DNA of 50,771 nt from Bryobacterales bacterium (GTDB taxonomy: Bacteria; Acidobacteriota; Terriglobia; Bryobacterales; Bryobacteraceae), in NCBI GenBank assembly GCA_025462945.1, contig JAOAPO010000494.1:1-50771 (forward strand), written 5' to 3'. Position numbers and translations under genes: made by a program. Within the stretch, counting starts at the first letter, position 1, and every line of letters starts with the position of its first letter. The notes under the pieces were generated by a model that saw nothing but the letters and a program-made list of their open reading frames with translations, was not told the origin of the DNA and made no database searches. Shown in pieces: positions 13,257 to 38,142 of this stretch.

Positions 13257-13265
13257 TGGTATATT
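13257..13265 (+). promoter_or_regulatory. Extended -10 promoter element TGgTATATT (candidate antisense-RNA promoter, copy 1)
   Basis: TGG TATATT at 13257..13265, with a possible -35 TTGGCA at 13239..13244 (15-nt spacer). The same TGG-TAATTT element sits at the equivalent place in copy 2 (38132..38140, minus strand). Confidence 0.45.
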
Positions 13266-13317
13266 GTGTTACTGAGAGGGCCAGTGGGAGGCACCACAAG
13301 CCCTCTTCGGAAGAAGA

Positions 13318-13401
13318 CTACAGTTCAAGTTCGAACTTAATCTTCGTCCGTCGTTTCCGCCGTAAAAGCAGAAGAACGATCAGTAAAGTAAGAAAGATCA
13401 T
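13318..13401 (-). CDS. 27-aa mini-protein MIFLTLLIVLLLLRRKRRTKIKFELEL (hydrophobic N-terminus, Arg/Lys cluster, amphipathic tail); type I toxin-like
   Basis: Below the ORF-track size cutoff. ATG at 13401 is preceded by AAGGAGGG with a 5-nt spacer. A paralogous 26-aa ORF in copy 2 has the same architecture and a conserved KIK tripeptide encoded by different synonymous codons. Confidence 0.5.
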   Translation of the reverse strand: MIFLTLLIVLLLLRRKRRTKIKFELEL

Positions 13402-13413
13402 CTAGACCCTCCT

Positions 13414-13520
13414 TTCTACTCCGGTAGATTTGCGGACCCCGCCCTACACGGCGGGGTTTTGCATTTTCGGAGTCCGAAGCTCCTGATGCAAACCGCCTCT
13501 CCTCAAATCGCGGAGTAGAA
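13414..13520 (-). promoter_or_regulatory. Conserved multi-helix 5' leader RNA of the mini-ORF, copy 1
   Basis: Closing helix ttctactccg/cggagtagaa ends directly at the SD. Internal hairpins are tttgcat..ggagC(UUCG)Gactcc..atgcaaa and ccccgcc-gtgtag-ggcgggg. The same helices can be drawn in copy 2. Confidence 0.5.
13436..13467 (+). terminator. Rho-independent terminator (plus strand), candidate end of the antisense RNA
   Basis: The 7-bp GC-rich stem ccccgcc/ggcgggg has a 6-nt loop and is followed by TTTTgcaTTTT. Confidence 0.55.
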
Positions 13521-13684
13521 CAATCAGAATAGCCATTGCAGGGAGAAATGAAAATACCTCTCTCCCGAGGTGGTAGTACATCTCCCAGCACCGGCTCTTC
13601 GTCTGATATCCTTGTTCTTTCAGGAGCTTAAAGCACCCTCGACGGGGTGCGCCTAAGCTCAAACCTCCGGAGCCACTTCTCAAC

Positions 13685-37793: not shown

Positions 37794-37884
37794 TGTTTAC
37801 AACTCTATCGCGCGTTGAAGTAGTACTACTTTTCTTTTCAGCAGGGGTATGGTGATCCTGCTCCGGACCCGCTACGATGCTTAG

Positions 37885-37987
37885 TTTCTACTCCGGTCTT
37901 GCAGAGGTGAAGTTTGCAGGAGCATCCGGACTCCAAATGCAAAACCCCGCCTCACGAGCGGGGTCTGCAAATCTACTGGAGTAGAAA
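37885..37987 (+). promoter_or_regulatory. Conserved multi-helix 5' leader RNA of the mini-ORF, copy 2
   Basis: The 10-bp perfect closing helix tttctactcc(37885-94)/ggagtagaaa(37978-87) can extend by G.U and G-C pairs. Inner helices are ttgcaga/tctgcaa, tttgca..ggag..ctcc..tgcaaa and accccgc/gcggggt. The SD AAGAGG follows immediately. Confidence 0.5.
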
Positions 37988-38125
37988 GAGGTGACTGCTT
38001 ATGTTGCTCTCGATGTTGTTCGTCGGTCTGTTAATACTCAGGCTGCGGCGGCTCAAAATCAAAATCGACTTCCGATTCTGATGCCTGACCGTAAGAGGGT
38101 CAGTGTTCACCGCACTGGCCCTCTC
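37937..38125 (-). ncRNA. Predicted cis-antisense RNA of about 190 nt, fully overlapping the mini-ORF (antitoxin-like), copy 2
   Basis: Extended -10 TGGTAATTT on the minus strand (38140..38132), only 5 nt past the MBOAT stop. 5' hairpin 38124..38094. Minus-strand terminator gaccccgc-loop-gcggggTTTTgcaTTT ends near 37935. Confidence 0.35.
38001..38081 (+). CDS. 26-aa mini-protein MLLSMLFVGLLILRLRRLKIKIDFRF; type I toxin-like, paralogue of 13318..13401
   Basis: ATG 38001 is preceded by AAGAGG with a 9-nt spacer. Layout is a 13-residue hydrophobic N-terminus, an Arg cluster, then KIK plus an alternating hydrophobic/charged tail, as in copy 1. Confidence 0.5.
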   Translation: MLLSMLFVGLLILRLRRLKIKIDFRF

Positions 38126-38142
38126 AACATCAAATTACCATA

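Follow-up and report, generated by a model that had tools for sequence, protein, structure and literature searches.

A covarying leader RNA in Bryobacteraceae-type genomes, predicted to belong to a multi-copy type I toxin-antitoxin-like module

The window analysed here, i.e., the whole 50,771-nt stretch of DNA from a Bryobacterales bacterium, carries two mini-ORFs, each preceded by a leader that comparative analysis indicates is a real, conserved sense-strand RNA structure. This leader is a genuine new RNA structure family. On the evidence of sequence, the interval 13414-13520 is probably the 5′ leader of a ~300-nt mRNA that encodes a 25-29-residue hydrophobic/basic peptide and forms part of a multi-copy type I toxin-antitoxin-like module. 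The two promoters, both RNA ends and the function of the peptide as a toxin are predicted. The features of the two copies are collected in Table 1.

Architecture, covariation and coding strand of the leader

A preliminary description of the locus had proposed four helices common to both copies. The same fold was recovered with RNAfold, which returned for each copy a closing helix, an inner helix, the UUUGCA/GGAG...CUCC/UGCAAA hairpin (hereafter hairpin 1) and the GC hairpin. The predicted energies are -53.2 kcal/mol for the leader of copy 1 (z -3.74) and -47.2 kcal/mol for that of copy 2 (z -3.59), and the stability of the native leaders was matched by none of 200 shuffles in copies 1 and 2. 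The closing helix abuts the Shine-Dalgarno sequence (SD) as had been described, its 3′ strand GGAGUAGAA leading directly into AGGAGG. Across the family, the aligned homologues show a leader of ~105 nt made of a 9-10-bp closing helix, a 7-bp inner helix and a three-way junction, from which hairpin 1, variable in length but conserved in its UCCGGA-CUCC apex, and an 8-bp GC hairpin are deduced to extend.

Two points of the earlier description stood in part. Only copy 1 has the C(UUCG)G apex on hairpin 1, the family consensus loop being UCCGGA followed by CUCC. The statement that loops differ while stems are kept applies to the stems, the GC-hairpin loop and the junction strand, but not to the hairpin-1 loop, which is highly conserved across the family; free sequence variation between copies is limited to the GC-hairpin loop and the junction strand.

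Table 1. Coordinates of the module features in the two window copies (basis of the assignment in the last column where given).
Feature	Position in the window	Strand	Sequence details and basis
Copy 1 leader, three-way-junction domain	13414..13520	-	Fold, covariation, independent compensatory events per pair
Copy 1 closing helix	13520-13511 with 13423-13414	-	
Copy 1 inner helix	13509-13501 with 13435-13427	-	
Copy 1 unpaired junction strand J	13500-13493	-	J GAGGC (13499-13495) / 3′ loop GCCUC
Copy 1 hairpin 1	13492-13458	-	
Copy 1 GC hairpin	13457-13436	-	
Copy 1 SD/start hairpin	13390..13414	-	AAGGAGGGUC (13414-13405) pairs GAUCUUUCUU (13399-13390); SD 13413-13407; AUG 13401-13399 at loop edge; full-length folds, partner swap, covariation
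Copy 1 mini-ORF, 27 aa	13318..13401	-	Hydrophobic N-terminus, RRKRR cluster, alternating KIKFELEL tail; AGGAGG SD
Copy 1 3′ hairpin after stop codon	13275..13306	-	Loop UGCCUC (13293-13288); fold
Copy 1 predicted sense promoter	13526..13554	-	-35-like TTTTCA (13554-13549), 17-nt spacer, -10 TATTCT (13531-13526)
Copy 1 predicted sense start	~13521-13519	-	First closing-helix bases
Copy 1 predicted antisense RNA, ~190 nt	13257..13468	+	Extended -10 TGgTATATT (13257-13265), start near 13272; promoter and terminator scan
Copy 1 predicted antisense terminator	13434-13459 (stem)	+	T-rich tail to ~13468
Copy 2 leader	37885..37987	+	Fold, covariation
Copy 2 closing helix	37885-37897 with 37975-37987	+	
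Copy 2 inner helix	37899-37904 with 37965-37970	+	
Copy 2 junction strand J	37905-37912	+	J GGUGAA (37906-37911) / 3′ loop UUCACC
Copy 2 hairpin 1	37913-37942	+	
Copy 2 GC hairpin	37944-37964	+	
Copy 2 SD/start hairpin	37988..38011	+	GAGGUGAC pairs GUUGC.UCU; AUG at 38001; full-length folds, partner swap
Copy 2 mini-ORF, 26 aa	38001..38081	+	
Copy 2 3′ hairpin	38094..38124	+	Loop UUCACC (38106-38111)
Copy 2 predicted sense promoter	37850..37878	+	TGGTGA, 17-nt spacer, TACGAT (37873-37878); start near 37885
Copy 2 predicted antisense RNA	37935..38140	-	Extended -10 TGGTAATTT (38140-38132), start near 38125
Copy 2 predicted antisense terminator	end near 37938	-	GC hairpin followed by UUUUGCAUUUGG
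J / 3′ loop in other genomes			GUCGCA / UGCGAC; GUUGCA / UGCAAC; GCCGCA / UGUGGC; GUCGUGG / UCACGAC; GGCCCG / UGGGCC

Homologues from soil and peat Acidobacteria added more than 100 copies to the comparison. A pattern for the 3′ half of the leader gave 28 matches in 26 DNA stretches (Bryobacteraceae, Bryobacterales and Terriglobia assemblies) and matched 84 metagenome contigs; most homologues were retrieved by such a pattern, and apparent conservation in the 3′ half is thereby inflated. With these homologues, the covariation on which the proposed fold depended is seen in every helix. When 112 sequences are aligned by fitting to the model, 94.5% of the cells are paired, as against 36-54% with slid partners, and changes on both sides occur in 30 of the 38 pairs, exceeding all shuffle controls. 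An alignment of 40 sequences made by MAFFT only, with no structure fitting, gives much the same figures (92.6% paired versus 38-54% slid). On a tree of 86 modules, most pairs underwent 1-6 independent Watson-Crick state switches, and the three most variable pairs counted underwent 13-16. Because these switches are repeated independently on the tree, the covariation signal is not a single inherited change.

The strand on which the fold operates is indicated by its G-U pairs and by its energy. The closing helix holds 140 G-U cells versus 8 A-C cells, with G-U as the commonest pair at one position, and the sense strand is more stable than its reverse complement by 4.6 kcal/mol (85% of copies), which places the fold on the sense (mRNA) strand. 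In the inner pairs of the GC hairpin, nearly every change replaces one Watson-Crick pair by a different one (1 G-U and 8 A-C cells), a pattern that fits use on both strands and that plain conservation could also account for.

The UCCGGA-CUCC apex of hairpin 1 (13458-13492, minus strand, and its homologues) ranks with the best-conserved segments of the leader; the antisense overlap does not reach it, and no covarying partner was found for it. Some copies carry apex insertions of 10-60 nt (L127, L091, L126, L047, L044 and L058), with the base stem and the CUCC 3′ arm unmoved. As long-range partners of this apex, neither the 3′ UTR nor the ORF gave a significant result, and pairing of the junction strand with the ORF is, if anything, worse than with swapped partners. 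Two further pairings were considered and rejected. The inverted repeat UCUAC-CGGA-GUAGA, taken as an alternative partner for the 3′ strand of the closing helix, has all four U/C and A/G combinations close to independence, i.e., no covariation, and a pseudoknot between the hairpin-1 loop and the linker CCGG shows no apparent covariation, as judged by eye only and uncounted.

Both leaders were scanned against Rfam 15 at permissive thresholds, and no family reached its gathering threshold. The best matches are at chance level, namely a 28.4-bit match to rnk_pseudo on the terminator strand (cut-off 55) and a 20.2-bit match to OrzO-P (cut-off 60).

Translation start, predicted RNA ends and predicted antisense transcript

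The closing helix, by its position beside the SD, had been thought suited to keeping the mRNA translationally inert. Occlusion of the SD is not its role, as the SD lies outside the closing helix and is occluded by a separate covarying hairpin, which adjoins the closing helix with a gap of one or two bases. In most of ten full-length homologue folds, the SD and three or four spacer bases pair with the G of the AUG and with codons 2-4. A partner-swap test gave -11.8 kcal/mol with the own coding part versus -9.3 kcal/mol with a foreign one, the own pairing being more stable in 89% (p 7e-14). Double changes occur in 7 of the 9 pairs in the 112-sequence alignment, two of the pairs have 13 independent events each on the tree of 86 modules, and the hairpin is rich in G-U. 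The non-coding spacer covaries with codon 2, as in the combinations GUC/GAU, AAC/GUU, UGC/GCA and GUGG/CCAC. Tuning of codon choice for this hairpin found no evidence: synonymous recoding of codons 2-9 gives -11.3 versus -11.8 kcal/mol (z -0.25). Since recoded codons fold nearly as well, part of the pairing between the SD and the codons follows from encoding a hydrophobic N-terminus, and it is in the spacer that the adaptive signal, as read from these comparisons, is located.

The mean unpaired probability predicted for the SD is 0.08, and the SD is predicted to be paired to at least 89% in full-length, 5′-truncated and 3′-truncated RNA. An mRNA fold that hides the ribosome-binding site, one of the features by which type I toxins are recognized, is thus predicted in silico. 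Simple truncation was considered as the activating step and is unsupported, the SD still being paired in silico after 5′ and 3′ truncations. The earlier suggestion that the mRNA is inert until processed gains no support from thermodynamics alone in these models; it is something that we infer.

The predicted start of the mRNA coincides with the first base of the fold. Of 108 distinct upstream regions, 82 have a TAnnnT box that begins 13 or 12 nt ahead of the first base of the helix; within -20 to -10, such a box is present in 89 of the 108 versus 7 in a control window. A -35-like box is located 17 nt upstream of the TAnnnT box. This fixed distance between promoter and helix implies that transcription would start at the first closing-helix base and that the mRNA would lack any free 5′ tail. 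Many copies have GGAGGTAT upstream of the sense -35 box (13556-13581 on the minus strand and 37818-37849 on the plus strand of the window), and a matching (G)TAyTACCTCC or GTACTAC block ~10-14 nt above it makes an inverted repeat centred near -50. This repeat is clear in only about one third of copies and could be an operator or an insulating hairpin.

The mini-ORFs encode a peptide whose pattern recurs in ~70 intact relatives of 25-29 aa with AGGAGG-type SDs. Entropy at the three codon positions (1.02, 0.51 and 1.16) reveals the period-3 variation of a coding signal. The hydrophobic stretch spans only 11-13 residues and is immediately followed by the basic cluster. The sequence therefore predicts an SD-preceded ORF for a small (<60 aa) hydrophobic peptide, as is characteristic of type I toxins. 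Searches of Pfam and NCBIfam with the peptide gave nothing above cut-off. The copy 1 peptide (13318-13401, minus strand) has weak, sub-threshold matches to the C-terminal sorting-signal models Loki-CTERM and MYXO-CTERM, which are attributable to its short hydrophobic helix with an arginine/lysine cluster behind it.

About one tenth of copies have a frameshifted or truncated mini-ORF behind an intact leader, and one copy has a decayed GC hairpin in which an A-run replaces CCCC; these copies (L067, L076, L081:1735-1872, L085, L097, L062, L063, and L018, which is the second copy of G188) look like decaying paralogues. More distant matches of the leader model precede unrelated mini-peptides, e.g., MVLLLVRFRSLLGRLTVLLTWRKR and MILIVRFVMRYITIKVKISRSRKRR (L023:1506-1700, L024, L025:1506-1700 and L028), and the leader architecture may be common to several peptide families.

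The GC hairpin had also been read as an intrinsic terminator of the opposite strand, and the larger collection bears this out. A conserved UUUUGCAUUUU comes after the hairpin on that strand, and 102 of 113 copies have 4 or more T in the 8 bases that follow it. The putative terminator comprises a stem of 8-10 bp, a loop of 4-9 nt and then U-UUUGCAUUUU, and would be fed by a promoter ~190 nt upstream on the same strand: an extended -10 element, TGnTAnnnT, lies 44-52 nt beyond the stop codon in 84 of 98 copies, adjoining the covarying 3′ hairpin. The opposite-strand GC hairpin is accordingly built as predicted intrinsic terminators are, with stem, loop and U-tract. Although one A-run stays unpaired in the sense fold, it is conserved, and its complement is part of the antisense U-tail; the terminator reading accounts for this conservation. 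Two RNAs thus appear to share one DNA hairpin, which forms a structural helix on one strand and a putative terminator on the other. No U-tract accompanies the sense 3′ hairpin. In copy 1, this hairpin read on the plus strand is the 5′ hairpin of the predicted antisense RNA, and the GC and 3′ hairpins each fold well whichever strand is read.

The apical loop of the 3′ hairpin that follows the ORF has a complement in the unpaired junction strand J, with which it covaries (Table 1). The duplex of J with its own loop has an energy of -6.7 kcal/mol, compared with -4.8 kcal/mol for the reverse-complemented loop (p 2e-5) and -3.9 kcal/mol for shuffled J (p 2e-13). A Watson-Crick run of at least 5 is found in 38% of own J-loop pairs versus 10.7% of foreign pairs, and in 16 of 31 distinct junction types; the match is weak or absent in about one third of copies, including copy 4 of the window's genome. 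This pairing suggests a long-range contact between the 5′ and 3′ parts of the mRNA, a candidate that we rate as likely. J also has the sequence of the loop in the 5′ hairpin of the antisense RNA, and both are able to pair with the 3′ loop of the mRNA. It is conceivable, if rather doubtful, that the leader acts as a built-in antitoxin decoy, in which J would occupy the antitoxin landing loop and lock the 5′ and 3′ domains together, leaving the message untranslatable and antitoxin-blind until processed. If so, tuning would be specific to each copy, through the covarying junction-loop pair that it carries.

Proposed mechanism, distribution and alternative readings

Altogether, these features lead to a model in which the compact fold would bury both the 5′ end and the SD and would leave no single-stranded landing site for the ribosome, so that the toxin mRNA would be stable but silent. 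A ~190-nt antisense RNA would start from a promoter beyond the 3′ hairpin, run across the ORF and the SD into the leader, of which it would cover the 3′ half, and end at the GC hairpin; its pairing over the SD and the ORF would block translation or lead to decay. Translation would require processing or unfolding that exposes the strand upstream of the SD hairpin. In a standby-site version of the model, as for tisB and dinQ, loss of the 5′ strand of the closing helix would expose the strand just upstream of the SD hairpin.

The spread of the module is narrow, patchy and multi-copy, and among the genomes searched it is seen only in those of Bryobacteraceae type. The window's genome has four dispersed copies, and a first structure model located the module in 6 of 151 genomes of the same family, with seven copies in one of them. 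A second structure model gave no hit in the 79 genomes of two sister families and found none in 150 genomes from ~60 other families of the phylum. BLAST searches of plasmid and phage collections returned no match, and no terminal repeats were found. Several metagenome and MAG contigs carry tandem arrays of two or three copies ~340-400 nt apart (three copies in L138:974-1887; also L041, L058, L072, L081, L045, L050, L142 and L084).

The same data can be read in other ways. The product could be a harmless small membrane protein, whose leader and cis-antisense RNA tune its level or stabilize its mRNA, with no toxin-antitoxin pair involved. The 11-13-residue hydrophobic stretch and following basic cluster do resemble a membrane anchor, the sub-threshold CTERM matches point the same way, a paired 5′ end is a general mRNA-stabilizing feature, and the toxin role is itself predicted from sequence. 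We nevertheless regard this reading as unlikely, since it sits poorly with a module that is dispersed, multi-copy and sometimes tandem, that is patchily distributed within the family and missing from the two sister families searched (6/151 and 0/79), that is frequently frameshifted, and that is silenced in layers by an SD hairpin and a fully overlapping antisense RNA. Dispersed, multi-copy and patchy loci with layered silencing are characteristic of type I toxin loci and less so of housekeeping small proteins.

The leader might instead be a sensor, riboswitch-like or protein-binding, in which a ligand or factor held at the three-way junction and the conserved unpaired bases opens the SD hairpin. 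Conservation of the UCCGGA-CUCC apex and of parts of the junction without a pairing partner, outside the antisense overlap, would suit such a function, as would the lack of a covarying partner for the apex in the ORF or 3′ region. A ligand pocket, however, would be invariant, whereas the junction strand varies freely and tracks the 3′ loop; hairpin 1 tolerates insertions of 10-60 nt and no Rfam family matches, which together make a sensor improbable. Still less credible, and in our view very improbable, is the proposal that the helices serve the antisense transcript or a DNA repeat element and that the sense fold is a by-product. The module is repeated and its GC and 3′ hairpins fold well on both strands, which speaks for it, but the closing helix (140 G-U versus 8 A-C cells) has at one position a commonest pair, G-U, that is a mismatch on the other strand, the SD hairpin is likewise rich in G-U, the two halves of the leader covary although the 5′ one lies beyond the antisense terminator, and neither terminal repeats nor plasmid or phage matches came to light. 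A silenced toxin mRNA with a cis-antisense antitoxin stays the preferred reading.

Relation to known type I systems

The module fits the type I toxin-antitoxin mould, as far as its predicted parts can be compared. It resembles hok/Sok of plasmid R1 and enterobacterial chromosomes in its small membrane-type peptide, in a highly folded, stable toxin mRNA, in a 5′-3′ contact within the mRNA (tac/fbi in hok, the candidate contact of junction strand and 3′ loop here) and in a cis-antisense RNA, predicted here, across the translation start region. The two differ in that there is no sequence, Pfam or Rfam relation to the Hok peptide, hok mRNA or Sok RNA (Rfam at any threshold), and in that the antisense RNA predicted here spans the whole ORF and ends within the toxin leader. 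The candidate long-range contact here is a 5-7-bp junction-loop match and not an end-to-end helix. hok/Sok has an overlapping leader ORF, mok, whereas none was noted here, and hok/Sok occurs in Enterobacteria while the present module is found in Acidobacteriota.

The J-loop contact recalls the 5′-3′ folding of both the hok and the aapA1 mRNAs (PMC5416894). In the aapA/IsoA system of Helicobacter pylori, SD-sequestering hairpins are combined with 5′-3′ folding (PMC5416894, PMC6733600). Shared features are a ~30-aa peptide, a full-length mRNA fold that impedes translation (predicted here) and sequestration of the SD in short hairpins, of which one draws on the beginning of the ORF; antisense recognition via hairpin loops is a plausible further likeness. 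IsoA covers the 5′ region only, whereas the predicted antisense RNA here overlaps the ORF fully, and aapA/IsoA is activated by 3′ processing, whereas removal of the 3′ hairpin here leaves the SD paired in silico. The ibs/Sib systems of Escherichia coli likewise have a very small hydrophobic ORF inside a longer cis-antisense RNA and several copies per genome, but scans of either copy gave no Rfam match to Sib, and a basic cluster and an alternating tail set the present peptide apart.

The primary transcripts of dinQ and tisB are inert (PMC5066626, PMC7708055). In tisB/IstR-1, dinQ/AgrB and zorO/OrzO, it is a structured 5′ UTR that makes the primary transcript inert, the ribosome-binding site remains structured, and translation proceeds via a single-stranded standby region exposed by 5′ processing (PMC7708055, PMC5066626, PMC11228461). 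By analogy, standby logic would fit a leader that has no free strand beside its SD hairpin. The antitoxins of these three systems are divergent trans-type RNAs of short complementarity, in contrast to the cis-antisense RNA predicted here.

Type I toxin-antitoxin families have been studied in a narrow range of bacteria. None was reported from Acidobacteria in a survey of their distribution (PMC5367252). The present comparison yields a well-supported RNA architecture, with five covarying helices and a candidate long-range contact, from abundant yet poorly studied soil and peat bacteria. The alignment is ready for a new RNA family model, and the more than 100 natural variants constitute a test series for the silencing of toxin mRNAs and for the avoidance of cross-talk between paralogues.
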